Of a DNA stretch of 64,000 nt, positions 1 through 51,431 are shown piece after piece; position 1 is the first letter of the stretch, and each line of letters begins with the position of its first letter. The notes under the pieces were generated by a model. It saw only the letters and a list, made by a program, of their open reading frames with translations, searched no databases and was not told the origin of the DNA. Position numbers and translations under genes: made by a program. This DNA comes from Marsupella aquatica (Eukaryota; Plantae; Marchantiophyta). The stretch covers positions 13,308,828 to 13,372,827 of the forward strand of contig OZ316894.1 in the NCBI GenBank assembly GCA_973895155.1. The letters are read 5' to 3'.

Positions 1-260
1 AAAGGGCCTCCCGCGAGCTGGGAGGATCACGCGAGCGGGGGGGAGTTAAAGGGCCTCCCGCGAGCTGGGAGGATCACGCGAGCGGGGGGGAGTTAAAGGG
101 CCTCCCGCGAGCTGGGAGGATCACGCGAGCGGGGGGGAGTTAAAGGGCCTCCCGCGAGCTGGGAGGATCACGCGAGCGGGGGGGAGTTAAAGGGCCTCCC
201 GCGAGCTGGGAGGATCACGCGAGCGGGGGGGAGTTGAAGGGCCTCCCGCGAGCCGGGAGG
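1..260 (+). repeat. 47-bp GC-rich tandem repeat, about 5.5 copies, truncated by the window start
   Basis: Unit AAAGGGCCTCCCGCGAGCTGGGAGGATCACGCGAGCGGGGGGGAGTT repeats head-to-tail with no spacers. Each unit has an internal CCTCCC...GGGAGG hairpin. Confidence 0.95.
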
Positions 261-684
261 AATGGCCGCGCGCCCTGCATAGGGCCGCGCGCAGGAGGAC
301 GCAAGGGTAAGGCCCGAGAAATGGGCCGGGGCGCATGGCGAAGGCGCCAGGAGTTTTTTCGGTTCTATTTTTTTTTCCTTCCTTTTTCTTTCCCTCTTCC
401 TTTTGCACGACCCTCTCATTGCCGAAAGCAAAAACGGGGTTCTTCTCTCTCTTGCCGGAAGCTCTCTCCAGATTCTAATTATTTTTGAAGCTCTCTCTTT
501 CATGGTGGATTAGTGGGGCTTGCTGGCGTCATTCTTCCAGGCATTAGTGGCGGCCGCACGGAGTAGTGACGGGAAATTGAGAGAATTTAAGTGATCGGGC
601 TACGGGGGCTGTTTCGGGCCAGGGAATTGACATTGCCACGGGTGACGGGATTGGTGATTGAGAAATTGATTTCGGGATGCATGG

Positions 685-2541
685 ATGCTAGATCAACCAG
701 AGTTTAGTGCGTCACGCATTCGGAGATACAAGGCTGCTTACCGTGACTACGTGGAGACTCGGATTACACGGGAAAGGGAAGAGAGAGAAGTTATGATGAG
801 CACGGGATTGGCAGCGGGTTCCTCACCGGTGGGTAGGAAGATTTTTCGTCGAATTTATCCCAAGACCTCCACCAAGGTGATGGAGGATTGTCGGAACATT
901 TTCCAAGCCACCGGGCTTACAGAATTCATGAAGGTGGAGATTACCATCCCTTCAGGGAAGAGCTGGGACATTGAGGCCGGGATGGAGTTCCGAACGGAGG
1001 GAATCTACTTTGAATGTCTCAAACGTGTAGTGCCCCATGTGGAGTTGGCTAAGCTATTGTTTCTTGAGAATCAGAAAATCTCATTCACACCTCGGAATAT
1101 CAGGGGAGAACTCACGTTGAAAATGGTGGCCACTTGGGTGACCAATCCTACCTCCACCACCGCCATCCCTCTTTCTGCTGTCAAGGATGTTGAGTATAAG
1201 GGCTTCCTGGCCAAGGTGCATCAACGGGTTCTTGGCAACGTGCAATCCGGAGTGCTGAATGAGGAGCATTTCGTGGTAGCTATGGACATCAAGAACTACC
1301 CAGCCCATGTGTACGGATGGTGGTGCTACGGATTGAAGAAGCTATTGGCCGCTGAGCCCGGGAGTGTGAAACCAGGTGGGGCTGTACATTTGATGGGGTC
1401 ATTTGTATTGGCCAGGGCAGAAGGGTTGATTGGTTCTCCGGGGCATGAAGACACGGGATCATCTCTCACCACGGAGATCCGGAGTATTGCCACTACCGTT
1501 TTAGGGAAGCTCACGGAGGAATCATTGTCTGCTGGTGGGGAGGATAATAGAGAAGAAGAGAACCAGGAGGATGATTGCACATTGGAGTGGCTTGAATCAC
1601 TCGTGGGAGATCCGAAACAGCCTCTGGAATACAACATTCCGGATGTTTACTTGGCAGAGCTACGGGATTTCAGAGAGGGAGTCCACGAGGGACTCAAGCT
1701 AGTCCACGCATTGAGGGAGTCTCTCAAGCACGCCACAGTCAAAGTAGAGACGTTAGAGCAGAGCATCCTGTCACTGAAGGAGGTGATCAAGACCAAGGAG
1801 CAGACCATTCATGAGAAGGTCAGGCACATCAATGCAGCTCACGTAGAGATCACCAACTTGAAGGGAGCTTTGTCCACCAAGGCCAAGGAAGCAGAAGAAG
1901 TAGGAGCGTTGAGGCAAGCATTGGCCAAAGAGAAGCAAAATTCTGGAGAAGTGATGGAGTGGAGGAACCAGGTGGGAGCACTACGGAGTCAGGTGGCAGC
2001 CTTTGAGACACGAGCGAAGAGAAGTGAGGCCCTGAGTCTAGGGAAACGGAAGAGTCCCGGCACACCTGGCTCCACACTTTCCCCGGATGTGATCTCCCAA
2101 GCTATCGAGATGGTGGTGAAGGAGGTTAGTGGGAAGTATGGACCCTTGTTGGATGGAGCCAAGAAGAGTCAGGAGAAGAGTAAGAGCTTGGAGAAGAAGC
2201 TCCGGGAGGTACGGAAATCGTTACGGGAGGCTCAGGTCAGTACGGGGATGCCACCCAGGTCTGTCACCCCCGGGACTCCCATGGCCACGGGGCAAGTTCT
2301 ACCGTTGGAGTTGCGGTCCGGAGAAGAGGCTACCCTCTGGAAGGACACAATTGGTGAGGGGTACATCAAGGCGTGGCAGGCCTTGGCTGCTTTGAGGAAG
2401 CGCGGGAGCAGCAGCACTAAGAGTACTCCGTCGAAGAAGAAGAAAAGTACGGTGGCACTCACTCCCGTGAGTGATGAGGAGGAGGACCACTCACGGGGCA
2501 CAAGTCCGGGCACCGAGAGCGAAGAAGAAGAGGAGGATTAG
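685..2541 (+). CDS. 618-aa TE-associated accessory protein: globular N-terminal region, acidic linker, long coiled coil, basic/acidic tail
   Basis: Intact intronless ORF with a heptad-rich C-terminal half. Degraded look-alikes at 21213-23933, 28420-28760 and 52009-52170. Confidence 0.65.
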   Translation: MLDQPEFSASRIRRYKAAYRDYVETRITREREEREVMMSTGLAAGSSPVGRKIFRRIYPKTSTKVMEDCRNIFQATGLTEFMKVEITIPSGKSWDIEAGMEFRTEGIYFECLKRVVPHVELAKLLFLENQKISFTPRNIRGELTLKMVATWVTNPTSTTAIPLSAVKDVEYKGFLAKVHQRVLGNVQSGVLNEEHFVVAMDIKNYPAHVYGWWCYGLKKLLAAEPGSVKPGGAVHLMGSFVLARAEGLIGSPGHEDTGSSLTTEIRSIATTVLGKLTEESLSAGGEDNREEENQEDDCTLEWLESLVGDPKQPLEYNIPDVYLAELRDFREGVHEGLKLVHALRESLKHATVKVETLEQSILSLKEVIKTKEQTIHEKVRHINAAHVEITNLKGALSTKAKEAEEVGALRQALAKEKQNSGEVMEWRNQVGALRSQVAAFETRAKRSEALSLGKRKSPGTPGSTLSPDVISQAIEMVVKEVSGKYGPLLDGAKKSQEKSKSLEKKLREVRKSLREAQVSTGMPPRSVTPGTPMATGQVLPLELRSGEEATLWKDTIGEGYIKAWQALAALRKRGSSSTKSTPSKKKKSTVALTPVSDEEEDHSRGTSPGTESEEEEED

Positions 2542-4400
2542 ATAGGCGTACGGACGTGGGTGTACGGCCTCCAGATTTCCAACATTTTAGTGGGGGGTCA
2601 CTCATGGGCTTGTTGGGATGAGCTCGCGGAGCTGATTCCAACAAGAGGCGGCGCTCCTCAAACGGAGCCAGGATGAGCAAGTTATGGCCTGGAGAACTTA
2701 TGTTTTTGCGGTACGGAAACGGCCATAACTCAGGCGTCTGAAGTCCGTTGAGGGAGCGACTTAGTGATTCGGAAGCAGGAAAAGAAGAGCTATCCAGGGG
2801 TGAGCTCAGGTGTGCACTTGGAAGGGCACCTAGTTTCGGCCATTTTGGGGTGCCTCTCACTTTCAGGGTTCACGTGTACTGTTGGGGCGCCGTCGAAGGC
2901 ACCGTCGGCCCCCTTGTTTTGGGTTTAGGGTTTTAGCAGCATGTGTGTGCCGCATGCTCCTCTTCAGTTTAAGGATTTCTCTTAGTGCAAGGTTTTAGCG
3001 GCGCCGCTAGGGTAGCCGCCACCGTTGTGACCCTGTGAGGGGTGCTTTGGTGTGATTTTTCAGTATTTAGGGGGATAGCCCCGAAGTAGTTAGGGGGACT
3101 CAGTGTGAAGTTAGCAAGGAGGGATAGAGTGGAGCCTGAGGAGTTTGAAAGCGTGTTCAGAGTAGTGAGGGGGAGCCATACTCATTGTCCGGAGAGGCAG
3201 GAGTTGAGTAGACGGCAGGAGGCCGGGTTACTCATGCAATGTGTATCGTTTTTCCCAAGAGATATGGATCTGTACATTTGACTTGATGGGCTTTTGTTGT
3301 GTGTTCCTTCTCCCTTTTTCGCTTTCCGAATTGTGTTCTCCCGTTCTATGATTTGAAGAAACTTGCTTGGTTTGAGTCGGCCTTGTGAGTAGGGGTGGTG
3401 ACAGCACTCTTTGGGTGACTCCGAGTGAAGGTGTAGTGGGGTAGTCGGCAGGACTTGATCAAAAGCTGTGGGGTGAGGGTAGTCGGTAGACTTGATCAAA
3501 ACCTACATTTCCGGGAGCGGAAACCAAAATACTCATCCTGGTGTGAAAAGAATCCAAATAGCGTCCCTCCACGACCCCGTAATACGATACCAACGGTTTA
3601 AGCGAAGAAAAGTGCGGTTTGCACGTATTAACCGTTGGAGAGGCAAGTGACACCTACAACTAATTCAAACATCAAAACTTGAATACTTAGGTTTGACCCA
3701 TGAAATGTTTGAAATTCAATTGATGTGAGTGGTACAAGTCTTCTCCATTAGATTCTTTCTCCTAAGCCCAATTTGGCACAAGAAAAAGACCCATACTTGG
3801 TCAAAAATCAATGTTGAAGAAAAGACACAAGCATTTTCTTGTGAGTCCAAATGTAGGGAGCTCCCTCATAACATGGGAGAAACCAAAGGGTTTTCTCCTA
3901 AGTTGAGAAATCTATTCCTATCTAAAAGGAATTCTAGACTCTAAGAGACAAGGTAAAAGGTAAGACGCTTACAAATCTAAATCTGAGACTCCATAAGTGA
4001 CAAGTGATGTCATTCTAAATCTGATCCTAATTAACTAAAATAAAGCTCAAGTAAGAGGTAAAACGATTTATGAGTCAAGGGCCAAAACTATGTAGTCTTT
4101 GTTCCGTCAAAGTTGTTGCCGAAAGTCTAAACCGATTCTGTAGTGTTCAAGCGATTGTTTGTCCGAAGCGATTCTTCCTTCCAAACTCAAACTTCTTAAC
4201 TTTCTTCCATAACGTTCCTTTGAGGCTTAAAATGGGTTAAAGGGTGACGGATAGACCAAAAGAAGCTTCAAGTAAGGTTAAAATGTTTGAAAATCTGCCA
4301 TTTCCACTCCAATGCTTATTTTTGCCATTCCACAGGGGTATTGAAATCGACATCTTCTCCATCGCCCGAAATGTCACTTCCAGACAGATTAACAACAGGA

Positions 4401-7157
4401 TTAACTAGGCGTGGGGCCAGGGATAGCATCAAATGTCGTGCGATTAAGATTCTTCCTTTTCATCGATCTAGTATTGGGCGAGGTGACAAGGATTTTATCA
4501 TCCCTATGGGAGTCTTGTGGCGAGATATTCCCAGATGCATGTCCCTTCCTCTTCAAAGATTTGGTGACAACATCTCCATTGAGAGGTGCACGTCTCTCCA
4601 AGTCAAACTCGACAGCGTTGGACAGTAGCATATTCATTGCATCTTCATACAACTTGGGGGAGCCTGCCTGGTCTGCTGATCAGAAAGCGAGTTCCCAAAT
4701 CGTGGGACCTTTTCCTCTATGCAACCCTTTCCGATACGCAGTGTAAGCAGCAACCTGAGAAATAGCTCAATTTTGGTCCATTTCACATGCCTCAAAGAGG
4801 CCAACCTTTTTCTTCATTACCCATGCTTTCATACCTGCGTGCACGGACTCTGATCCTGTACAATTAGGAATCTTAGCCCCTTCTTCGACACTCTTGTTAT
4901 GCAATTACATAGAATAAATTGTCTGTTACGCAACAAGAAAACACTAGCGTCGGGCGCTAGAGAAGTGGAGTCGGTACCTAGAAGTCAAAACTGGCAATGT
5001 ACATTAAGGGACAACTTATTGCATCCTATTGTGTTATCTGACAGTTCGAATAAATGATAGTGCCAGGCGCTAGTATTAAAGGATGCTATGGTATTGTAAT
5101 ATTTGAAGTTTACACTATGGATACAATCATTTTGTAATGAGAATATAGCAGAGCAATACCTAAAGAGCAGAAAGCAAAGTAAAACAACTTACCAAGCGAA
5201 TAAAATTTCCCCATTGCCTCCACCTGACGACCCACCATGAAATCCAACTCTGGAGCATCCGGAGCTTCCCGGGGACACAATTACCGGACTGCCACCACAA
5301 ATCAATCTCCCTTGAAAGTCTGTAAGCCTCTACAAACGTGGGGGCATTTTGCATCTTATCCCAAAGCCTGCGATGCTCTGCTTGACTCTCTTGAATCACT
5401 CCTTCAACTGAATGGCGATGGAAGGCTTGGTAGAAATGGAATGCGTCAGTTCACTCACGCTTTGGGTTTGGATGCCCTCCAAAAAAGACATTTCGGACTG
5501 CCAGCCAACCAGCTTGAGCATTGTCCGCCATGAATCCATGAATAATCGGATTTTCTAATCCATTCTCCTTGGACACCTCAATCATTAGTCTCCAAGCCTT
5601 CTCGAACAACTCTGTATCCTCTGCTTTTAGTTCGCAGGTAAATAAGGTACACAGAGCGCGATAGTTGTGATCGTAAATATGCGCACTAAAAGTAACCCAG
5701 TCTTTTGTGAGTCGTTTCATCACATCAAAACTTACCCAAGCACCTTCGAGACTTCCACCAGGTTGCATTTGTCTCAAAAGATCGACGCCTGATCCATGGC
5801 CGATCGAAGTCATCTTGAATATGTGAGGACGGTCTTCTTGAGATCCTTGACCTGGTAGGAGGTACCTTTGTAGGAAAGGCATGTTGATATTTCTTTGATA
5901 CCGAACAAGAAAATCTAGTTCACCTCGACCTTTCTGGTCCTGTCTAACACTACGAAAGAGGGACGCAAACTTCTGGGGTGTGGAAACTACCATGAGCGAC
6001 TCAAATATCTCTGTTTCTTCAATATCTTGAATATCTTCCATACTTTCACACAAGGACTTTACAAAGGACCCTGTCGCAACATTTTTTACACCAGCAGGGG
6101 TGAAAATTGGATTTCCTTCTAATTTCTTTTTGATAACCTCCTCAACAATCTTCTCTTTGCTCTGAGAAAACACCTTTCTTGAAGGATGGTTGTGGATCCC
6201 CATATGAATTGTCAAGCGGGACATGTAAGTACAGGTTTCTGAGTCAACTAGAACCTGAGGGGAGGTGTTTACAAAAGACAGCAAACAGGAAACAAGATTT
6301 AATAACAGAAACTAGTAACAGGAAAAAAAACTGGTAATAGGAAAATGGGTGAAAAAAAAAATTGATTTTTTTTTTTTGAGAAAAAAATAAATAAATTTTT
6401 CGGTCGACCAGTTTTTTTTGCTAGCGCCCAAATCTAACCAAAAATGTTGCATTGTTAATTTTTTTTGGAAATAACATGTTTTAGGAGACATTTTTAAATT
6501 GTCATTTTTCCTGGTAACAATGATTTTTTCCTGGTAATAGCACATTAAAAACAGGAAAAAAATTCCTGTTTACCTGTTTCCTGTCTCTGTCGCTATACCC
6601 AACCTTAAGATTTCACTGGAACCAGTTGACTTGAGAATGGTATCCATTGCACTTCTCCGATACACAATGGAATTTTTGGTAAAAATTGCTGTAACCTCCT
6701 GTTTAACAACTGTGTGAGGGGGTTTAGCACTAGACTCAGGCAAACCAGAAGGTCCATCATCGTCGCTATCTGAAAGCAAGACAACATCAACAAAGGGTTT
6801 GGATGAAGATGGGAGATCGGATGCTACTGGTTTTCGAATGACAATAGAATACCGAATTCCTGCATTCAGGTGCCAAAAATGAATCTCGTCATCAACATCA
6901 AAAGAAGGAGTGAAATTAGACGCTTCATCTCCATTTCCCTCCTCCAAAATGTCCTCAATGTCGTTCAAATCCAAACCAAAGCGCCCACAGAGATAATTCT
7001 CACTAACTTGCTTGTATACGTCATTGGCCGACAATGGAATGGATACAAGGTCACCGGTAGACGGACGCGTCAGAACGATTGACCTCGACATTGTAAGATC
7101 ATCCAACCCAAAAACACTCAGTTCACGATAATGAATGACGTCTTCGAATGTACACAA
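4401..7157 (-). pseudogene. MULE-type DDE transposase, spliced and disrupted
   Basis: WRKY/FAR1-like Zn-finger end IHMGIHNHP. Candidate catalytic triad AWVSFD (~5727), HGFMADNAQAGW (~5525) and GSESVHAG (~4848), with DAFHF at the CxxH-like position. GT donor at 5192. Several in-frame TGA/TAG stops and a MITE insertion at 6261-6600. Confidence 0.8.
6261..6600. mobile_element. Non-autonomous MULE-type MITE inserted in the transposase
   Basis: Asymmetric ends GGAGGTGTTTACAAAAGACAGCAAACAGG and CCTGTTTCCTGTCTCTGTCGCTATACCC. Flanks AACCTGAGG (6252-6260) and AACCTTAAG (6601-6609) match 7/9 as a TSD. Degenerate palindrome at ~6422. Confidence 0.75.
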
Positions 7158-8107
7158 TGGTATTCATAGTGAATAATCCGTTTGTCAGAGCCGTTAGAAT
7201 ACGACAGAATCACTACCGGTCAAAAGCACATCTGACACAATAAATGTTTTTTGTCGTTATGTCAACGACATTTACACTATTGAGCCTAAGATGTCCATTT
7301 CCAAACAGCATAATCATGTTTATTAAATCACCATAATTGAGTAGCGTCGGGCGCTACTCAAACCCACACCCTAAATTGTGGTATAAAACTGGAATATTTT
7401 ATCCGGGGTTTCAGAATAAATCCTAAATTTTTGCAGCTATTTTCCAAATATTATCTAAAATTTTACCAAAATATGGATATTTAATATTAGCGCCGGGCGC
7501 TAATCTGAAACGGTAATCATGACATTTATTTAAGGACAAATATTCAAAAATTGAATTCATTTTGTTTTTTATTTTATACTTCAGGGTCATTGTTGTCCTG
7601 ACTAAGGGAAAATTTAGGGTTTAAATAGTGAGCGTTTTGGGTAGCGCCAGGCGCTACTATTGACCAATATCAGATTTCAACTAGGAATATAGATTAAAAT
7701 CACCAAATTATTCTTTAACCGTCATATTCAACGGTAACGTTAGGTCGTGTAACATTGAAGATATGCCAACGGTATTCCAACAACTAATCCGGAGTTGACA
7801 AGTGGCGCTCAGGAGAATGTCGTAAATAGATATCAATGTAGCGAGGGGATAGTTTAGAGATGATACTCTCCCCACCTTCCTTGTCCGCTGTATTTAGGTT
7901 CCGTTTTGGAGGTTCTTTGTGCAAGAATTCTCTAGAAGAAGTACGGTACGAATGAGGTACTCATCACAATCGTGAAGCATTTTGTGTATGTGAAACATGG
8001 ACCCTCTCCCCACCACCTAGCATGGGTATAGTGCTAATGGGCAGAGAGAGCAGATCTATTCCCAGACATCCCAGTGCTCATTTTCTGGATCTGTTTACAG
8101 TCGTCAA

Positions 8108-11100
8108 GTGACACGGTCTACAGCATCCCAAACTCCTGCAACAATCGCGGTAGTCACATTTCCGAAGAGCAAGAGAGCGAAGATGGACGATCTCGACACA
8201 TACGCTGTCGAAGATCAAGGAGAAATGTCGCTGACAATGTCCGACGTTATCTCCAAGCACGTTATAGTGTTTGGCAAGGATTTTTTAGGGCACGACAAAG
8301 ACCCCCCAAGGATTCCAATGTGTCACTTGGTTCACATGGAAGTTGTCCGCACCTTACAGAAGGGAAGTCCTTCAATTGAAAAGTTGAAGGACTCTTTTCG
8401 TAGCATAGGATATAACTCAAAAATTGGAATGTTGTTCTATGTCCAGCCGGCAGATTGGAATGGGAATGTCCAGACATGTACTCCGGAAATTCGAGCGACC
8501 TGGGACCTGATGTGGGTGGGCGAGAAAGAGAAGTTTGAAGCTGAATGTGTGGCCGATCCAGACTTCATGGTGTTACAAGATAAGATGTTTTATGTTTTTG
8601 ACGGTAACCATCAACTTTACGCATGGTCGATCGTTACGAAAGAAAATCCCAAAGATAGCAAGTATCACCCGCGTGTGCAATGTACTATTTTCAAGGGTGA
8701 AAAGGGATCTTTGATTGAGATTGAGGCGACTATGCATACTGTGAACCAGTAAGTCTCTCTTTGAATTTCACCTATCCTTCTTTTTCATAGTATTTTTTTT
8801 ACTAGCGCCTGGCGCTATTGACTGACAAATTCTTCTGTAGACTTGGACAGGCCGTGGTGGAACCTTCCTGGATACTTCATGCCGACCGAATTAAGAGGAT
8901 TTTTTCCAACAATCTAGAATACTATAAATCAATCATTGATGGGGCAAACTTCAAGAAGTTTGGGCAGGTGATGCAGAAGACTCGAAAAGGATCGTGGTAT
9001 TCCAAGAAAATGCCTCAAGAAGCACTTCTGTATATCTTATGCGAGAATAAGATTAAATCCTATTCTCGCCAATTCAAGATGGACTTGGAGTCGGCAACCG
9101 CTCAGGGAAATCCTTGGTCTCAGGAAAAGACATCCAAACGACATGCGGTCATGATGAAAGAAGCAACGAAGGATTGGGCGATCAAGGTCTCAAAGATCAC
9201 TCCCTTGTTGAGTCCAGAGTTTGAAGACTTCATGACAACTTGTGCTGAGATGTATCCGATGACAGAGGTGAACAAACGCAAGAAGAAACCGGATGCGGTT
9301 GTCTGTACCATGGATCGTGCCAGGTTATTTACAGTAGTCTTCGCCCTCAACCCCAAATTGAGGAGCACTTTGTTAGTAGCGCATTGCACGCCAGAGCTCA
9401 GGAAGTAGTTCTTTCACCCACAAAGCGTTAGCGATGACCCTGTGAAGCAGTGGTGCCAAACATGGCAAACTTGGAATAGCATGGAGGGAATTGCTATTGG
9501 TATGCTGCAGACTGCCCTCCAGCAAATCAGTGAAATAATTCCTTCCAATCGATTGGAGGAATGGAAGTGTGAGTCTTATGACTCACTCGTTGAAATAGTG
9601 TGCAATGATTTCAAAAAATTTGGGGATGCAGTGAAAGGTAAGTTTTTCAATACGATGTGGATGTCCAAGTACCCGGACAAGGAAGACTACACACTCAAGA
9701 ATCAAAAGCGAGCAAAATGATATGTCTATTGTTTCTTCATGCACGTGGAGATTGTGAAGCCTGACTATTTTTGGGCTTACCCAGCTGCTTTCCAGAATTG
9801 GGTCATCTGCGCAGATGGAGACATTTTGGCCAAACTGTATTCGATGTATCCCGCAGAGGGTATACTTCCACCAAGGAAATTGTCAGAGTGGGAGAGAATT
9901 CACTGCCCTTGGTATCTTGACACCGACAAATGGGATTCTCCTTTTGACGACACTGAGAAGGATGCTTTCCATAAACTGTCCAAATCCCAAGTTCCGAGAC
10001 AATTTGTCTCCGACATGAAGCAAGGAATTGAGGGGGACATCAACTCGTCGACGACTGAGTTGCAAAAAAAATGCGAAACCACTGTGGTTCATGTTGATCG
10101 AAGCCGAAAACCAAGAGCCAAAGCCAAGGCGAATGCCCCTATGGCAAGTGCTAGTGCCAAGTCTGGGAAAAATGTAAGCTACACCTCCTTCTTCCAACTT
10201 CCTTCTTTGGTAGCGCCTGGCGCTATCATGTGTCGTGAGTTTAATATGTTTTATTTCCCAAAATTAATGTGAGTGTTTGGTCAGCGCCTGGCGCTAACAC
10301 TCTTTATGTGCTTGACACCATTTTTTGGTAGGTGGGCAAAAATCTGATACTGCCACGGATGACACAAAAGTCGATGCAACACCAGAAGTCTCTGAGGCCA
10401 ACATTGGTGCCAATCCAGACCCCATCACCCCAGTTGAGAAGGGGAAGGTTATAGTTCCTATGGATGCTACAAGCACAAAGAAGAAGAAGAAAAGGACCAT
10501 CGATGCCTGGGAATCGTCACGAGATAATGCTTTTGGGGCCGGTATCCAACGGGATGTGGGGAATTTCAAGACCAAACTCGGAAGACACTGTATGGTCGAA
10601 TCAAGCTTGGCAGAATTCATTGATAGTAAATTTAGTAAGGAAGAGAAGCCAGATTGGGTCGCAGACGCTGAGAAGTGGGGTAAGGATTTGATCAAATTGG
10701 GGTGTAGAGATAAAGGAGTCATTCGAGGTGGGAAGGAACGATCATTTGGGGTGAATGCGGGTTTCATCTATCTCCCAACTGGTTTGAAACCCAATTGTTG
10801 ACCGTCGAGTCCCGAAATGGAATGTCACAGATCACATAGCAGCCAAATGGTTTTTTTGGGCGATGGATCCTTTCCTTTTGGATGACGGCATGCTCCCTAT
10901 CTTATACTTGGATGACCACGATCAGATTTCCCAGGTCATTTCTGCATGTCAGCAATCCAAGAAGTTCATGTGCATCAATACGCACAATGTTTTCATGTCT
11001 GTCCCAATGTACAGATCCAAGATAGATGTCCAGGTAAATGTTCTCTCTGAGTATAGCTATACTAGCGCCCGACGCTAATCTTTCTTTCTTAGGAAGTCTT

Positions 11101-11722
11101 CTCTCATGAATAAGAGATTTTTAAAATCCAGTTGGTTTGTCAACTTTTGTAGGTCTTCACTCTTAGACAAGATATATTTTGTCGAGTTTCTTTTAAAGGA
11201 AAGGTCCCAAAGGATCCAAGATTCAAGCCGTTATCTAGCGCTAAAGATCCTTCAATCTCGAACCTTATTGGGCTACAATCTTTGAAGGAAGATCATTGTC
11301 CTGAACTCCATTTTACTGGGAATTCCCGACTACCGGTTGGTTTTATGCAAACTGTCCTTAAACTCTTTACGACACCTAAGGATATTGTAATTGATTGGAC
11401 CGTCGGCTCAGGTAGTACGTTCATTGCTGGGGATTACTCGGGCCGTTTTGTCATCGGGTTAGAAAATCGTTGGGAGTTTGTTGAGACCGCTTCGAGGATT
11501 TTGTTGGACCTCATTTCTCCCAAACCTTTGGAGACACAACCTCCCCCTCCTCAAATAACTGGACAAAAAAAGAAAGATAGACTTAGATCTGTCCTCAACT
11601 TTGACTCGGACGAAGATGATGGGACGCCAAAAGATGATGTTCCTAAGGATGTCAATGACGGTGGGAAAGAGGAAACCCGACATGATGGGTCAACGGAGGA
11701 CAGCGAAGAGTCTTTGAAGTAA
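8108..11722 (+). pseudogene. ParB/Srx-like domain fused to a beta-class (N4C/N6A) DNA methyltransferase-like domain; multi-exon, disrupted
   Basis: N-terminal VRTLQKGSPSIEKLKDSFRSIGY...FYVFDGNHQLYAW resembles ParB (DGxxR). C-terminal FIYLPTG...FLLDDGMLPIL...RLPVGFMQTVLKLFTTPKDIVIDWTVGSGSTFIAGDYSGRFVIGLEN follows MTase motif order IV-VI-X-I-II. Frame-consistent GT-AG introns at 8749-8840 and 11034-11152; a probable intron at 10174-10331 does not keep frame. In-frame stops at 9406 and 9718, frameshift at ~10793. Confidence 0.8.
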
Positions 11723-11843
11723 TTTTTGTCTCTCGTAAGCTCCTTTATCCTTTCAATTGTTGGCTAACCTTCAATTCCACCGGTTCTATCGGTTAAGTAC
11801 TTACTTCCTCTTTCTCTTCCGCTTCTCTTTTGAGCAGGTCAGA

Positions 11844-12146
11844 ATGGAACCAAAGAAAATGGTTCAACTCCGGAGGAAAGTGGCTCAAAATGTAATCATC
11901 ACTCCCGAGAAGCCGTTTGTGTTGCCATCATATGCTGAGAACGTCGCGAGGAAGGTAGAGAAATTTAGAACGCTTTGCTGGGAAACAAAAGGACTTAGGC
12001 TTCTTAGGGGAGTAGACAGGAAGTTCATGAGGAACCCCTACGTAGATGATGTTTCTAGAAGCAAGTATATTGATGATGAGGCAGAGTCGACCGACAGATC
12101 TCATAGCTCCCAGAATGAGAGCTCAGAATCTGACACTGAAGGGTAG
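11844..12146 (+). CDS. Small 100-aa ORF of unknown function inside the MULE (separate gene or extra exon)
   Basis: Open frame MEPKKMVQLRRK...SDTEG, preceded by a pyrimidine tract and CAG acceptor at ~11837. Confidence 0.35.
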   Translation: MEPKKMVQLRRKVAQNVIITPEKPFVLPSYAENVARKVEKFRTLCWETKGLRLLRGVDRKFMRNPYVDDVSRSKYIDDEAESTDRSHSSQNESSESDTEG

Positions 12147-13241
12147 CAATTTTCTCCTCTATCAGGTCAAACTTCCTCCCAACTGTACGTGTATGCCCTT
12201 GGTTTTTGTTAGCGCCGGGCGCTATTGAATTTATTAAATCGGAATTGAGTTTGAGGGAGGTTTCCCCTTCCATTCAATGGTTAATGGGGTCTTTCGTAAC
12301 GTCCTTTGTGTGGGTTCCTCTCCTTGTTTAACTAGCACCCGACGCTCCCCAAAAAATACGTTGGAAGTTTCCGTTTGAATTTTTTTGTTTCCGCCCTAGT
12401 GTCATTTGGCTTTCAGTCGGCGACTGGTACCAAGAAGAGGACCAATAACGGGAAATCCAAGTCCCTTATAAACATACTATTGTTTCTTTCAAAGTCCATT
12501 GCTCTTGTTTTTCTCCTTCTCGATTCCATGGAAGTCCAGTGTGTCGACGGCCCACGAGAGCATATGTCAACTTCCGATTAGATGGTTTCCGCCAAGATCC
12601 AGATCGTCAGGACGCTGGGATTGACGATGATTGTCACTCTTTGAGCTAGGACATTGTACGAGGAAGCACCCACCAGGAGTATTAGCGCCTGGCGCTAGGT
12701 ACAATTGTACTGGCATCTTTAGTGTTCCTATGTAGCAATATTTGTACATCGAGGACAATATGTTTCACTTAAATAAAAAAGCTCGAGTTTCTTTTCTTTC
12801 AATTTCCCGTTTGAAGTTCTGACTCAGATACCTTGGTTAAGTCCTGCTTTTGTGCTTTGATATTGAACCTAGACTGTTAGAAATGTTTGGTTTCTATTTG
12901 GCTCTCAGCCTGAACATCAATCCTACGTTCTCATGATTTTCTCCACAAAGCATTTGAAGCGCCCGGCTCTAGTATTCGGCATGTTTGGGCGATTAATGTT
13001 TCATTATTTTGGGTTTGAACGCCCGGCGCTAGTATTCGGCATGATGCGTTTGTGTTTGTTTTGCCTATAAACTCCCGGTGCTAGTATTCAGCATCGCATA
13101 ATTATCAGTATTTTAGGAACGGTTTTTTAAAAATTTGCCACAATACCAGGAGAAATGTGCACCCAAAACAGGAAATTTTGCTGTTACCAGTTCCTGTTAT
13201 AGTTTGTTGTTTGCTGTTTACTGCCTTTTGTAAACACCTCC

Positions 13242-13954
13242 TAAAGCTGACCTTCCCGTCAAACTTCTCCACCTCAAACTTTGGCGCCACAAGCTTTCGT
13301 GAAGTCATTGATGCTGACACACACAATCACCAAAAATGAAAGTTGGCAAAAGTGGAACTATAATGCACCATCGCGTAGCCTGCAAGGTACACTACCAATA
13401 TCTTAAAATGATTTGGCAAAAAACTGCCTCAAAAAAGCTTATCTAGAAATATTTTTGTTTTCCTCTCCTCAAAGCACCCGCAGAACGGTGTTTGGTAAGT
13501 CACTCCTTCTGAACGCAAAACCTCCAGCGCACAACGACCAGTAACATGATCACAAAAATTGTTGAAAACAATCTGATCCGTCACCATGATTCAACACACG
13601 AACGTTCTCACCACTGCCCAGGCAACCGAACGTTGAACACAAAGCTTTGATACCACTTGTAGGAAAACCGATAGCTCCAGACTAGACAGCAATGCAGAAC
13701 ATGAGAGCACTCAATCTCACACTACACCAACAAGACACCACAATCATGGAGAAACTCTTGAAGGATCCATAGCTGATGAGATCAAACATGTGAAGAATGA
13801 GGGAGAGAATGCTCTTTCTCCAACCTATACCCCCTAAGGGGAACTAAGATGTGTGGGCCTAAATAAGTGGATCTTATCCTAAACTAACCAAGGGTCAATT
13901 AACCCTAGTAAGTCCAAACTAACTATAGTCAAGAACTCAAGTCAATTCCTAACA
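13242..13954 (-). mobile_element. Ty1/Copia 5-prime end: LTR (13658-13954), tRNA-iMet PBS, start of gag
   Basis: TG...CA-bounded LTR; PBS TGGTATCAAAGC (13644-13655, minus). gag N-terminus KFEVEKFDGKVSF is cut by the MULE end. Confidence 0.8.
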
Positions 13955-14900
13955 ATATTTATAGATGACTACTTGAGATATGTATGACCTAGCTAGCTGT
14001 GGCGGGCTAGGGACGGAGTCTGGTTTTTATTTTCGCGATTTAATCGGATTTTCGGGCTTACGACCGCAATTATTTCGCTGGCCAATTGAGGCGCTTGTAA
14101 TTTATTTCCTAGAGAAGAAGTCTGATGTTTTTGTCATTTTTCAAAAGTGAAAAGGTTGAGAATCAGACAATAAGCACGATGAAGTGCTTGGATGCAAGGG
14201 TGAGTACACAAGTTCTGACATTTTTGAAAGGTATTGTGAAGAATAGGAAATTACTCGTCATCTCACCATGATTATACTCCACAATAGAACGGTGTTGTTG
14301 AGCGGCTCAATCAAACACTATTGGAACGTGCTAGGTGTATGATGGGGCAATCCAATTTACCATATATTTTTTGGGCTGAAGCTATGAACACTGTAGCTTA
14401 TTTGGTAAACCTTTCTCCTTCTAGTGCCATTGATTACATGACGTTGTTTGAATGGAGGTATGAACGGCAAGCGGATTACCAACGGTTGGTAGTCTTTGGA
14501 TGTGATCTTTATCCTCTCACACCTAAGGAGCAGCGGTCCAAGCTCAAAGCAACGTCCAAGAAATGCGTCTTTCTTGGATACCAAAGTGGTGTGAAGGCTT
14601 ATTGGTTGTGGGATCCAAACACCGGTAAGATTGTTGTCAATAGGGATGTTTTCTTTAATGAGGATACCAGAACACTGAAGGAGGAGAAGAATTCTCAAGC
14701 TTCCCATATTGACATGGCAAAATCTTCCTTAGTTTGGTGGGAGGTTGAATTGGATGATGAGGCACAAGGAGATGCACAACAAGAAGCAGACCGTTGTCAT
14801 GCCAAAACATTTCAGCCCGGGGGTGGTCTTTTATAGTGAGTGATGGGTAGGTAGTCGCCATCCAGTCACGACTATGCGGATGCAAACAAGTTGTTGGGGA
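13955..14900 (+). pseudogene. Copia integrase fragment
   Basis: IFIDDYLRYV, NGVVERLNQTLLERARCM, FWAEAMNTVAYLVN, RSKL..KKCVFLGY, VNRDVFFNE; contains stops and frameshifts. Confidence 0.9.
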
Positions 14901-14989
14901 CCAATCAACTGGTGACTCATCATCATTCGTCTGAGACAATTGGTGTTTGGGTGGTGCTTGGCTGTTGGCAACTGGTCAGGCAACAATTG

Positions 14990-15458
14990 TGTTAATATCA
15001 AAGACAATTTACTTGATACAATAATATTTGATTTCCCTCTACTGTCCATCACTTGGTTTACAGCAAGGTGGAGTGCACTTTGACCATCACAAATAATAGA
15101 GCTTCACATTCCCATGTGGCAATCCCAATCTATCCAACCAAATTGCTTCCTTTGTTGCTTCTGCTGCTACAACAAACTCTAATTTTGTAGTAGACTAAGC
15201 TATACACTTTTGCAAAGTAGACCTCTAACTTATGCATCCAACACAAGTGTGAACAATACCCCATTGTTAATTTTCTCTGGTTTAGATCTTGTGTATAGTC
15301 AACATCTATATACCAATCAATGATCTAGCATTATCTGCATGTGCATCAAACAATAGACTATGATCCATATTACCTTTCATGTACCTGATAATCCATTTCA
15401 CTGCTTCCCAATGTACCTTTCTTGAATTTGACATGTATTTGCTTAGGCTTATTGCCAG
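14990..15458 (-). pseudogene. Copia RT C-terminus / RNase H fragment
   Basis: SKYMSN...HWEAVKWIIRYMKG, STTKLEFVVAAEATKEAIWL, CDGQSALHLA. Confidence 0.85.
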
Positions 15459-18235: not shown

Positions 18236-19421
<1,186 letters not shown>

Positions 19422-24240: not shown

Positions 24241-24899
24241 CTCATTATTTAGTAACTTAGGCACGACACTTGACGTAGTTGTTATGCAAACCCCTCTTAC
24301 TAATGGTACCATTATGGTCATCCCAATTGTTTTAGGATAATAAATGTGCTCTATTGCAAACAAAAAAATATTTGGGGCCTGCACAATGTACTCTCTAGCC
24401 ATGAAATCATAAGGGAGGTTGTAGAAGGCCCGTGGCAACAATGTAGTACTGCTACTTGTAGGAGCACCAACCACAGGTTGAGCAGGGCATAACCACAGTG
24501 CCAGGAAACATGAAAAAGGAAACAACAAACAACAAACAGTAAAAAGCAAATGGATGAGAATTTTTGAGAATTTTTGGGGGATTTTTATTTTTTATTTTTA
24601 AAATTTTTTTGTTTGTATTTTTTACATTTCTTTACTAGCACCCAAAGCTAGCAATAGTAACGCCTAGCGCTAGCCAAAAATGATTGTTTTTAAAAATATT
24701 TTGAAAATTTTGAGTTTTAATGAGACCTTTTTGATATTTCATTTTTGCTCGTAATAGTAAATTTTTCCTCATAACTGGAAATAATTTTCCTGTTTCCTGA
24801 CACGGTGTAAAGCCTCGGTTGAGCATGACCTGCTGGTTGTATTGATTTGCCTTGGAGGGATGCCAATTGAGCTCGGACTGCATCCAACTCGTTGGTCAA
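24240..24899 (-). pseudogene. gag-like retroelement ORF fragment split by the MITE at 24485-24816
   Basis: The frame ...QPAGHAQP resumes as AQPVVGAPTSSS... across the insertion; the TSD duplicates AQP. Confidence 0.4.
24485..24816. mobile_element. Non-autonomous MULE-type MITE with a perfect 9-bp TSD
   Basis: TSD GGTTGAGCA at 24476-24484 and 24817-24825. Ends GGGCATAACCACAGTGCCAGGAAAC and GTTTCCTGACACGGTGTAAAGCCTC resemble those of 6261-6600. Palindrome variants at 24636 and 24658. Confidence 0.88.
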
Positions 24900-32546: not shown

Positions 32547-34270
32547 CACTAGTAGAAACCGGGGTGTTTTATGACTAAGTTTTACGACTGCCCATGACTC
32601 CAACTATAGCTCCTTGATGGCAAACCGCAGGCTCTTCCCGGTTCTTCAACCAAAAACTCACCCAAAACACACCCTTGCAATGTCCTGAGTTAGTTGCAAC
32701 AACTCCAATCTAGCTTGCAGCTGCCAATCCGTTCCCTCCGCCCTCCTTGCCAATGCCAACTCCCAATAGCAATGAGGCTTGTTCAGCTGACCTCCTTTGT
32801 AGGAGCTCCCAACTCCCAAAGTGAAACCGTCACTACTTGCAGCTACGAAAAACGGTCCCTGGACCTTGTCGCTGCCAATGTGCGTCGTGCGCTCAGTTCT
32901 CCTCCCCACCAAGAACTGAAGAAGGATCGGCTTCAACTATAACTTCAACTCCAATGCCCAAGAAGATTGATGAGCTCCTTAGTCAAAGACGCAGCTGGAA
33001 GGGTATGCACGCACTTACAGTTCACTAAGCTCCAATGCCCGGGACGATTGAGGAGCTGCTCCTGAGACTGGTCGTAGCTTGAACGGTAAGACCACAGGAA
33101 TCCCGCGTACGTTGTTCGAGCTCACAATACGCTTGGAAGAGAGGATAGTAGTAGACTTCACCCTAAGCAATGAGATTAGACAGCATCGGGCTTTGATCCT
33201 AAGTCTTTACGCCTCCCACACAGGTCCCGCATTAGTAAAGCTTGTGCAGTGCCTTCCGCAGCAGTAGCAAAACTCCCGACTGACTCCCTCCTTCCGCAGC
33301 AGTAGTGATCACCTCCCTTGAAGCAGCTGTGAATGCACTCTACTTGCAATGGAAGACTCCAATATGTCCATCACGCAGCGATGGAAGCCACAACAATGGG
33401 AGCACGCATGGACGGGACCCACACCACCACAATGAGCTCGTAAACATCGAGGGAAAGTGAAGGAAATACGCACCCTAGCCAGCCGCAAGGATGCACTTTT
33501 GCCTTGGTGTCTGCAAACTCTCCCGGGACCCGATCGAAGGAAGCTCAGACATGTGTGACTAAACGGGATGTGCGACTAAACGGGACTCGGGAACGGAAAA
33601 GTTTGACCTGATGGTGGCGATCAACTCCATCCAATGGTGCGTGTCCTCCGATTAAACCCCCTCCCCCTTGAGATCGATATAACCCCCCCACCCTTGTGAT
33701 ATAACCCCCCTAAACCCCCTTTAGGTGTCTTGCTAAAACCCCCCCTAAACTTTGGCAGGAAGGGTTACATGCATGTGGATGAGTTAGGCCTAAACTGCAC
33801 TTCATGTAACACAAAACCACAAAAAAGCCTCCCTAGCAAACCCTTATGCCCCTGCATATAGTTCAGTCAATGGTTGTGTAAAGCGTAATCCCATGGCTCA
33901 GAATGTGTATGGGATCGGGTAAATTTCCTTTAACCAGGCATATGGCACCTACATTATTTAAAAAAGTGTTCAATGGCCACAATGAAAATTAATGGACAAG
34001 TCAATTTTGTTGACTAAATTGGACTTGGCTTACTATTGGCCATTGTCTTATGTTGACTAAGTATGACTATGTAGTCATACTTGAATGACTCATTCAATAG
34101 ATCATGATTTTTAAAAAGTTCAATGGTCTTAAGTTGTCATAAACATGACTACTGATGACTATCGAGTCTTATGGCGTCTCAAAAATAAGACTGATGTTCA
34201 AAGGTTGCACTTGCGTGGTCACCCCAGTCACAAGTGGTCTGGTCACGAAATGCCCCGGTTTCTACTAGTG
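32547..34270. mobile_element. Non-autonomous CACTA (En/Spm) element, 1724 bp
   Basis: Perfect 18-bp TIR CACTAGTAGAAACCGGGG / CCCCGGTTTCTACTAGTG and 3-bp TSD CCA (32544-32546, 34271-34273). Confidence 0.95.
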
Positions 34271-36513: not shown

Positions 36514-37465
36514 TAGCCCCATGCCTGTGCGTTGCACAAAAGATGTTGAGGCGAGGAAAATATGCTATGATGAAAAAAGATGTCGATGAGAAAAAAGGAA
36601 GTTGAGGAGGAAAAAAGAAGTTGAGGTGAAAAAAGATGGTGAGGTGAGGAAAGGGTGTTGAGATGAAAAAATATATCGATGAGAGAAAAAGAAGTCGAGG
36701 TGAAGAAAAGTTGTTGGGGAGAGAAATGATGGCAAAGTGAGAAAAAGATGTAAAAATGAGGAAAATATGTTGAGGAAAGAAATGTTGAACATGAGGGAAA
36801 GATGTTGCAGTGAGATAAAGATGTCAAGGGGAGAAAATATGTCAAGTGAGGAAAAAATGTCATGGTGAGGTAAAGATGTGAATGTGAGAAAAATGGCAAA
36901 ATGAGAAAAAGATGTTGAAAAGCAATACATATGTAAAGATTAGAAAAATATCTGCAAGTGAAAAAAGATGCTAAGGAGACATATAAAAGAGCTTTGCCAT
37001 GTAGTTGTTGGTATTGGTGCAATTGTGGCCATACAATTGTTGTGGTTGTGTTCTGTAACTCGTGTTGCACATAAAAATTGGAGAAGTGAGATAACGACCA
37101 CTGCATCATAGAATCTAACCAAGTGACAGGAAAAATGTGTTTTTTAATTAAACTTTTCAATATGTAGAGAAATAAGCAATTTTCTGTGCTTTATTTACAT
37201 TCCATTTAAAAAAATAGAAATTTTATCCCCATCTTTCTAAATATAAATACAGTTGATTATTTAAAGTTAAGTTATTATCTTGGGTAGGTGCAGGCAGGCT
37301 AAATTGTAGTTAGGGTAAACATTTATTTGAAATGGTGTGTATGGATAGATCTGAAAGTGAAAAAAACATTATTTTGATAAAGGTCTAAGATTGATTCACA
37401 TTTTTTTATGAGTTTGGAAAAGAACTATTTCATCTTCTTGGTAGAATAGGGTATTATATGGGAGA
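36514..37465 (-). mobile_element. Non-autonomous Helitron with an internal degenerate purine-rich minisatellite
   Basis: GTGCGTTGCAC hairpin near the 3-prime end, AAAAGATGTTGAGGTGAG-type repeats, homology to 49969-51431. Confidence 0.65.
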
Positions 37466-49968: not shown

Positions 49969-51431
49969 CTAGCTCAATACCCGTGCCTTGCACAAAAGAT
50001 GTCGTGTCGCCCAAGATGTAGTTAAGAACAAATATGTTGTGTCGCCCAAGATATCGTTAAGAACAAATATGTTGTGTCGCCCAAGATGCCATTAAGAAAA
50101 AAAGATGTGGTGTCGCCCAATATGTCGTTAAAAAAGAAAATGTAGTGTCGCCCAATTGAAGATGTCATGAAGACAAAAATGTTGTGTCACCCAAAATGTC
50201 ATTAATGAAGAAAAAAGATATAGTGTCACCCAAGATGTTGTTGACAAATTTTTTTTTGTGACACCCAAGATGTACTTAAGAAAAATGATATTGTGTCAAC
50301 CCAAGATGTTGTGGCACCCAATATGTCCTTAAGAAAAGAAATGCCACGTTGCCCACGATGTGGTTAAGAGAAAAGTTGTTGTTAAGTAAAAAAGACTTTG
50401 TTAAGACAAAAGTTGCACAAAAGATGGTGTGGTGAGAAAAATATGTTGAGGTGAAAATAGATGTTGAGGTGAGAAAAAGAAGTTGAAGTGAGAAAAAGAT
50501 GTCGAGGTGAACAAAGATGTTGATGAGAAAAAGAGATGTTGAGCTAAGAAAAAGAAGTAGAGCAAAAACTATGTCAAGGAGAGAAAAGATGACAATGTGA
50601 GAAAAATATGTGAAGATGAGGAAAACATGTTGCCGTGAGATAAAAATGTGAAGTTGAGAAATAGGTCAGATTTTGAGGTGAAAACAAATGTCAATGACAA
50701 AAAGAGATGTTGAGGTGAGACAAAGAAGTCAAGGTGATGTAGAGGAGAGAAAAAACATGGCGAGGTGAGAAAACAATATTGAGGAGAGAAAATATGTCAA
50801 GGGTGAGGGAAAGATGGTGTAGTGAGATAATGATGTCAAGGTGAGAAAAGATATCAAGTCAGGTGAGAAAATATATCAAGGACCTAAATGATGTTGAGGG
50901 TGAGAAAAAATTGTCGTGAGATAAAACTGTCAATGTCAGAAAAAATGGTAAGATGAGAAAAAAATGTCAAGGCAAGGTAGAGTTGTTGTGGTGGTGTGCA
51001 ACAACTCGTGCACTGCAAATAGAAATTGGAGGCTGAGATAACAGTCACTGCAACATAGAGTCCAAGCACAACCAAGTGGTAGAAAAAATATATTTTTTAT
51101 TTTAGATTTCTAGAGAAATTAATATCATATATATATAAATTATTAATACTCAAGTTTTTTCAGAACTTTAAAGTTATTATCCAATTCTTTAAGTCTCAAT
51201 TCTAATAATTTAAAGGAATAATATTCAATATTTTATTTTTTATCTTGGTTGGGTTTGGGTAGGCTATGGGTAGCTTGGGCAGAGGTAATTGAGATTAATA
51301 GAGATATGGATGGATCCTACATTTGCAGAAAAACAAATTTTTACTTAAGACCTAGGATTGTTCACAATTTTTCTTGAGTTTGTAAATAATATCCATATCC
51401 ATTTTTAGCAGATATGGTATATCACTTATGA
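49969..51431 (-). mobile_element. Non-autonomous Helitron with two internal minisatellite arrays
   Basis: Minus-strand 3-prime end GTGCAAGGCAC hairpin, then CTAG followed by T; 5-prime TC after A at 51431. Contains ~35-bp TGTCGCCCAAGAT repeats followed by ~19-bp GATGTTGAGGTGAGAAAA repeats. Confidence 0.75.

Follow-up and report, generated by a model that had tools for sequence, protein, structure and literature searches.

A Mutator-type transposon of the liverwort Marsupella aquatica with a putative ParB-like and methyltransferase-like cargo gene and family-specific palindromic sites

A cargo protein that recognises its own element is already in print as a hypothesis for algal transposons. 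In Ectocarpus, the accessible text of PMC12477816 describes Sola1-1_Ec32, in which a gene of 1,104 residues for a ParB-like domain and an N4C/N6A methyltransferase lies opposite the transposase, and raises self-binding and self-modification as a hypothesis. In Bostrychia, Plavaka elements with the accessory genes PAG2 and PAG3 combine ParB-like cargo beside inverted-repeat arrays with a methylase of the PF01555 type; self-modification is again proposed, homologues of PAG2 and PAG3 are placed on Chondrus Mutator elements, and binding and modification of a transposon's own sequence is stated to be known from VANDAL only (10.1101/2025.02.11.637652, accessible parts). Here we analyse a stretch of 64,000 nucleotides from Marsupella aquatica (contig OZ316894.1, positions 13,308,828 to 13,372,827; hereafter the window). 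It contains a copy of a multi-copy Mutator/IS256-type DNA transposon family, in which a transposase gene (minus strand, about 7091 to 4316) stands head-to-head with a spliced cargo gene (plus strand, 8183 to about 12146) and short palindromes are scattered through the non-coding DNA. With moderate confidence, we read the cargo product from its sequence as a VANC-like self-recognition protein that would act by binding, not by writing N4-methylcytosine (4mC) or N6-methyladenine (6mA).

The window protein and that of Sola1-1_Ec32 are likened by layout and size alone: a single gene of about 1,100 residues (about 1,150 predicted for the intact window protein) joins both domains opposite the transposase, the ParB half being weakly supported in the window. 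The carriers differ, a Sola-1 transposase with a 4-bp target duplication against a Mutator/IS256-type transposase with a 9-bp duplication at a related MITE (miniature inverted-repeat transposable element), and the accessible account names neither binding sites nor loss of a catalytic motif (PMC12477816). In Bostrychia the two domains belong to different genes, ParB joined to a 2OG-oxygenase and the methylase joined to a SET domain, and the arrays lie beside the cargo, whereas in the window the ParB-like and methylase-like parts form one protein and the sites are scattered through the introns of both genes (10.1101/2025.02.11.637652, accessible parts). ParB-linked methylases in algae and fungi are also mentioned in PMC4738411, but not with this layout in its accessible text.

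VANDAL elements share with the element studied here a Mutator-type carrier, an accessory gene, and short family-specific motifs that lie in introns, intergenic DNA and terminal parts and turn over via tandem repeats. The VANC motifs are 8-9-mers that lack palindromic symmetry and all point one way, and their function is demonstrated, while function in the window element is predicted from sequence, and the window cargo has prokaryote-type domains, unlike VANC (PMC5735166, accessible text). DUF3723 is a recurrent, conserved cargo of unknown function in fungal Starships (10.1101/2021.12.13.472469, 10.1101/2025.02.28.640899). Starship DUF3723 genes are the closest language-model neighbours of cargo exon 1, but Starships use a tyrosine recombinase, and the accessible parts of these sources describe no methyltransferase fold. 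DUF3723 and ParB are not named together in any paper of the literature searched. Bacterial ParB-parS systems have dispersed palindromic sites. The window element resembles them in its dispersed palindromes, which we take to be unrelated in sequence to parS, and in a GxxRxxA-like motif (DGNHRL, inferred), not in a helix-turn-helix, CTP binding or a ParA partner.

An earlier note on this DNA, made from the letters alone and without searches, knew of no description of the combination. Descriptions exist: the accessible text of PMC12477816 has the same fusion opposite a transposase with the same proposed function, and that of 10.1101/2025.02.11.637652 has ParB cargo with inverted-repeat arrays. 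Apparently new are the Mutator-type carrier of the fusion, the degenerate catalytic motif and the site sequences that change between families; the literature searched, without subscription journals and preprint supplements, yielded no paper in which a Mutator element carries such a fusion together with a degenerate catalytic motif and palindromes specific to the family.

Palindromic sites and the divergent gene pair

The sequence TAGCGCC-N-GGCGCTA occurs 11 times in the window with at most one mismatch, and none of 100 shuffles yields any such match. At up to three mismatches there are 15 matches (shuffle mean 0.53, maximum 2), 14 at 4945-13031 and one at 24658 within a miniature inverted-repeat transposable element (MITE). 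By the gene model, whose exon borders are inferred from GT-AG sites and homologues, the element is 63% coding and 37% non-coding, and none of its 14 palindromes overlaps an exon (p about 9e-7 under uniform placement). They are found in four introns (one of the transposase gene and three of the cargo gene), in the region of the divergent promoters and, on the right, in the subterminal part; their flanks are unrelated. The best copies lie 1-8 kb inside the element, and the terminal and MITE copies are the most decayed. The palindrome centre reads CCNGG and each strand holds two CG, so that host CG/CHG methylation could affect binding.

The window transposase has no sequence-profile match in Pfam (including MULE) or PDB, and its fold was tested through a relative, P0004 (51% identical), modelled from a 20-row alignment with a predicted local distance difference test score (pLDDT) of 75.6. 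The top four Foldseek matches of the model are ISCth4 transposase (best E 1.3e-4), with P element, Hermes and RAG1 ranking below it. ISCth4 is presumably an IS256-family transposase, and the match is at the level of domains, since the whole-chain template modelling (TM) score is low (0.14). The GCM domain 1odh appears at rank 10 (probability 0.99, E 0.012). The Cys/His residues of this N-terminal GCM/WRKY-type zinc finger are conserved among relatives, and the finger is mostly deleted from the window copy. By its D..D..DxxH..E motifs, the fold match of the P0004 model and the 9-bp duplication of a related MITE, the transposase is best filed as Mutator/IS256.

Linkage to the cargo was followed in the best 80 of 176 transposase relatives in metagenomes of the Joint Genome Institute, from 51 of 64 parts scanned. 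It was judged in the 20 loci whose DNA extends 5 kb or more beyond the transposase match on the upstream side, the other 60 being too short there. The ParB-like exon-1 domain lies upstream in 13 of the 20, on the opposite strand in 12, and downstream in none. Merged by identity, these loci give 14 distinct insertions; the domain is present in nine, from at least four families, and head-to-head in eight. The arrangement is retained across transposases merely 25-36% identical, and the pairing of transposase and cargo is old. The lone head-to-head exception is L060, where cargo pieces at 2447-2959 and 7267-7524 (+) lie on the transposase strand, possibly an inversion or a neighbouring element.

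The exact window palindrome is not present in the 80 relative loci, and some of them have other palindromes. L001, whose transposase is 61% identical, has three copies of a 26-bp palindrome, TATTGCTAGCGCC|GGCGCTAGCAATA, with the window half-site and no spacer; they occupy the same intron as the window sites, and the remaining intron letters align poorly. A distant family (L040, L043/44, L061/62, L064 and L070; mutually 76-81% identical) carries TCAACTTT-N8-AAAGTTGA, with 4-9 sites per locus against 0-2 in ten shuffled 20-kb controls. These sites form 51-bp tandem arrays within the cargo gene and are also dispersed between both genes. L066/67 has five copies of a TATGGTC-N6 palindrome, and L015 and L016 have two further palindromes. 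Since the sites are two-fold symmetric and both half-site and spacer vary by family, we infer a dimeric, element-encoded DNA-binding protein.

In an unbiased scan, at least five recurrent palindromes are found in 8 of 13 cargo-bearing loci, and none of 19 other loci of at least 9 kb exceeds three; shuffles reach 2-3 recurrent sites. Counted by insertion with at least 5 kb upstream, at least five palindrome copies occur in five of nine cargo-bearing insertions versus none of five cargo-less ones. This contrast in site density leans towards the cargo as the palindrome reader. Stop-free transposase exons of 630-700 residues are present in the distant relatives L002, L004, L005, L010, L016 and L019, which are likely young families.

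Much of what the earlier note had read from the letters stands: a Mutator-like DDE transposase head-to-head with a spliced cargo gene agrees with the gene models and with the ISCth4 and GCM matches of P0004, and about 15 palindromes in non-coding DNA agrees with the count above. It had also named outcomes that would speak against it. The cargo gene is neither single-copy nor unlinked, being multi-copy in contigs of runs X1 and X3 as well as paired with transposases in the relatives; the palindrome is enriched in the window far above shuffles, and relatives have palindromes of their own.

The cargo protein

The head of the cargo protein, encoded by exon 1, is likely ParB-like, to judge from its language-model neighbours and a short motif. 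Its nearest neighbours in the ESM-Atlas are DUF3723 clusters (0.95-0.96), which share 187-194 of 256 features, and a cluster with ParB_N is also near (0.91). The box-II motif of the window reads DGNHQL. Arginine stands at this place in two of eight relatives' head domains, and the codon in all eight is AGG (Arg) or one of CAA, CAG, CAT, TGC, TGG and TGT. Because each of these six non-Arg codons is one CpG deamination from Arg, DGNHRL was probably intact originally. GxxRxxA is a nucleotide-binding motif of the ParB/Srx type.

The far half of the protein is recovered by profiles. Exon 4 matches Pfam N6_N4_Mtase (PF01555) above the curated cut-off (E 1.2e-8) over profile positions 163-219 of 221 only, and also matches beta-class enzymes in PDB and PHROGs; the closest solved chains are 5hek, 1g60, 6pbd and 1boo. 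No other Pfam family is matched by any cargo piece and hence no VANC-related one, the VANC sequence itself not having been compared directly. The ParB-methyltransferase fusion of the earlier note is therefore recovered in its S-adenosylmethionine (SAM)-binding half by Pfam, while its ParB half is not recovered by profiles.

Where the catalytic motif IV (DPPY) is expected, exon 3 of the window reads FIYLPTG, and (D/N/S)PP(Y/F) is absent from every frame of the cargo region. In contigs of four runs aligned to 10690-11100, YLPTG is the majority reading at motif IV in all four. Between 10690 and 10807 the sole change reaching 45% is the gain of two bases that reopens the frame at 10791; YLPT is therefore the family majority and not a decay of the window copy. 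Relatives have DVPS, NVPS, YVPI or DILS at the matching place, and the aromatic residue is lacking in all that align. As YLPT replaces DPPY in the family majority, the cargo is probably not catalytic, and its methyltransferase fold has probably lost catalysis. The suggestion that the cargo marks its element by methylation is accordingly not supported.

Candidate readers of the palindromes

If the cargo is a VANC-like reader, it would bind each family palindrome as a dimer. Its ParB/Srx-type head would serve for dimerisation or clamping and allow the protein to spread from the sites across the element, while the catalytically degenerate methyltransferase fold would serve as a SAM-binding contact to DNA or protein. 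The outcome would be a family-restricted, VANC-like escape from silencing by 5-methylcytosine (5mC), in which both divergent promoters stay on. According to the accessible text of PMC5735166, VANC21 sites have the same placement. The spread through introns and the divergent promoter region fits VANC21 better than it fits the terminal binding of the AtMu1 transposase described in the accessible part of 10.64898/2026.08.24.746577. We favour the cargo as the reader, acting by occupancy or spreading.

The transposase itself could instead bind the palindromes through its GCM-like domain, for end pairing or self-activation, with the cargo serving the element otherwise; we regard this as possible but clearly the less probable account. 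The GCM-domain match speaks for it, as do the degenerate palindromes of both MITEs and of the region next to the right end, the AtMu1 transposase, which binds and activates its own family (10.64898/2026.08.24.746577, accessible part), and the palindromes in L001, L015 and L016, whose short contigs leave the cargo out of view. AtMu1 binds terminal repeats, however, whereas here the terminal and MITE sites are the most decayed ones and the best sites are internal; the densest array of the distant family lies within the cargo gene, and cargo-less insertions have at most three recurrent sites. It is improbable that the palindromes recruit the cargo as a working N4C/N6A methyltransferase, which would then place a protective mark on the element that encodes it. 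For this account, the SAM-binding half of the cargo is kept above the Pfam cut-off, with beta-class enzymes as the closest solved chains; such 4mC writers work in Marchantia, where 4mC and 5mC are mutually exclusive on a cytosine (10.1101/2021.02.12.428880, accessible text), and the same function is proposed for Ectocarpus (PMC12477816, accessible text). Against it stand the missing (D/N/S)PP(Y/F), the YLPT majority in every run and the lack of the aromatic residue in all aligned relatives too. Least probable of all, in our estimate, are palindromes that form RNA hairpins or arise as by-products of local duplication, with the cargo as a passenger. The sites could form a 6-bp stem closed by a 3-nt loop, introns hold many of them, and those of the distant family lie in tandem repeats. 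Yet sites are also intergenic, with unrelated flanks in the window, and the letters themselves, beyond their pairing, are kept inside a family; the half-site is shared by the window and L001 though the surrounding intron has diverged, and the cargo is kept head-to-head across the diverged transposases.

Several results weigh against a cargo protein that reads the palindromes. The transposase has a GCM-like DNA-binding domain of its own, the MITEs both carry degenerate palindromes, and the AtMu1 transposase alone activates its family (10.64898/2026.08.24.746577, accessible part). Four of the nine cargo-bearing insertions (L033, L060, L069/70 and L072) have at most three recurrent sites, and the contrast of five of nine with none of five involves too few and too closely related insertions for a test, since four of the five positives are one family. 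Exon 1 has no match among Pfam (including DUF3723), PHROGs and PDB profiles, and its AlphaFold2 model is unusable (pLDDT 36.7). ParB_N makes up 11% of the neighbouring Atlas cluster, which shares only 124 of 256 features. Motif IV was placed by eye. The methyltransferase-like halves of the relatives resemble the window weakly (rank 2 and 12 of 1000 shuffles; HHalign probability 13%), and no methyltransferase profile matches them. Finally, stops of the CGA-to-TGA type in the window copy are CpG mutations; the copy is CpG-mutated and hence the family probably is too, so that any protection failed eventually.

A more far-reaching form of the self-recognition reading is doubtful, and we rate it below the transposase as reader. 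Here a bacterial ParB-parS-type clamp would have been domesticated by eukaryotic transposons; it would load at the family palindromes and slide along the element, with the dead methyltransferase fold blocking host methylation. Protein and site would co-evolve (spacer 1, spacer 0 and an unrelated 8-N8-8), and the head domain would be the DUF3723 cargo of fungal Starships, a module common to unrelated giant transposons. The family offers exact candidate sites, several site variants that occur naturally together with diverged proteins, and a form in which the catalytic motif is missing, and the published hypothesis thereby becomes directly testable. If true, self-recognition by the cargo would mean that Mutator elements have built a second anti-silencing system independently of the first; it could give a clue to DUF3723 and would provide a module for palindrome binding that can be reprogrammed.

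State of the copy, related MITEs and neighbouring features

The anatomy of the element is genuine, and the window copy is dead, left-truncated and without evident host function (Table 1). Both genes are broken, which the earlier note does not mention: stop codons are present at 5451, 9406 and 9718, with three more within the last transposase exon. Small losses at 4406, 10167, 10791 and 11862 are absent from many related contigs, and that at 10791 is absent from most of them. Every bin between 4168 and 13341 is covered by contigs of X1 and X3, several times more deeply than the lowest bins of the flanks. This is a read-out of depth and not of copy number, and no single contig spans the element; cover of both genes is lower in X5 and X6. 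Identities of X1 and X3 contigs to the element range from below 90 to above 99%, and 162 X1 contigs map to a single 411-base piece.

Table 1. Coordinates of the element and its related MITEs in the window
Feature	Position	Strand	Remarks
Transposase, last exon	4316..4922 (approximate)	-	catalytic-E motif PNCTGSESVH; three in-frame stops; 2-nt loss at 4406; 49% identity to L001
Transposase intron	4923..5192	-	palindromes at 4945, 5058; intron position same in relatives
Transposase, catalytic part	5193..6260	-	zinc-finger end HMGIHNH, first D WVSFD, second D FMAD, DxxH TDAFH; stop at 5451
MITE inside transposase gene	6261..6600		same family; 340 bases; degenerate palindrome at 6422
Transposase, N-terminal part	6601..7091	-	likely start MSRSIVLTRP; comparable starts in P0001, P0004, P0005
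Divergent intergenic region	7092..8182		likely two promoters; palindromes at 7342, 7488, 7642
Cargo exon 1	8183..8748	+	likely ParB/Srx-type (DUF3723-like) domain; DGNHQLYAW at 8600
Palindromes in cargo introns 1-3	8803..11077 (span)		at 8803, 10211, 10282, 11063
Cargo exon 2	8841..10173	+	about 440 residues without known family, candidate site-reading part; stops 9406, 9718; 1-nt loss 10167
Cargo exon 3	10332..11034	+	linker and N-terminal half of methyltransferase-like fold; YLPTG 10769-10783; 2-nt loss 10791
Cargo exon 4	11153..11718	+	beta-class N4/N6 methyltransferase SAM-binding half, DWTVGSGST at 11393; acidic tail
Likely cargo exon 5	11838..12146 (approximate)	+	inferred; further frameshift near 11862
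Palindromes in right non-coding part	12210..13083 (span)		at 12210, 12333, 12683, 12957, 13017; degenerate one at 13069
Right terminus	13176..13241		reads GGAGGTGTTTACA inward; adjoins start of Copia-like gag frame
Second related MITE	24485..24816		perfect 9-bp target duplication GGTTGAGCA; degenerate palindromes at 24636, 24658

The left end and the target duplication of the large element were looked for in the window and not found. Position 4335, given in the earlier note as the start of the element, falls within the last transposase exon once the 2-nt loss at 4406 is allowed for; it is not a terminus, because many related contigs have two extra bases at 4406 and L001 runs on through the same residues. 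Of the terminal repeats, the right end alone is present in the large element, and the MITE ends are short, imperfect and asymmetric. At 13244, loose ends of related contigs reveal an uninterrupted retroelement. A Copia-like retroelement at 13242-15100 flanks an LTR-like (long terminal repeat) stretch on both sides; the transposon right end falls in the first codons of its gag frame, and the remainder of gag was not found left of the element.

Over 66 bp, one end of the MITE within the transposase gene matches the right end of the element at 83% identity. The MITE replaces about 145 transposase codons that each of the seven protein relatives spanning this part possesses, and a loose end of related contigs at 6261 marks copies with an unbroken frame. 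The flanks of the MITE place GT and AG at its borders on the transposase strand, so that splicing might remove it in the manner of an intron. The 9-bp target duplications noted earlier for the related MITEs are perfect in the second MITE, while the flanks of the one at 6261-6600 agree at only 7 of 9 bases.

The left part of the window (1-4250) is a very high-depth repeat, probably part of an LTR element. It includes a 47-bp tandem array at 1-308 and an open reading frame of 623 residues with coiled coils at 670-2541, which has no curated Pfam match. A spliced NAC-alpha host gene lies at 18236-18902 on the minus strand. Two related arrays, at 36531-36965 and 49994-50998, consist of degenerate tandem units of 18-19 bp and 35 bp. 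At 32547-34270, 29-bp inverted repeats that start CACTAG/CACTA-like lie 1.7 kb apart and delimit a possible non-autonomous CACTA element.

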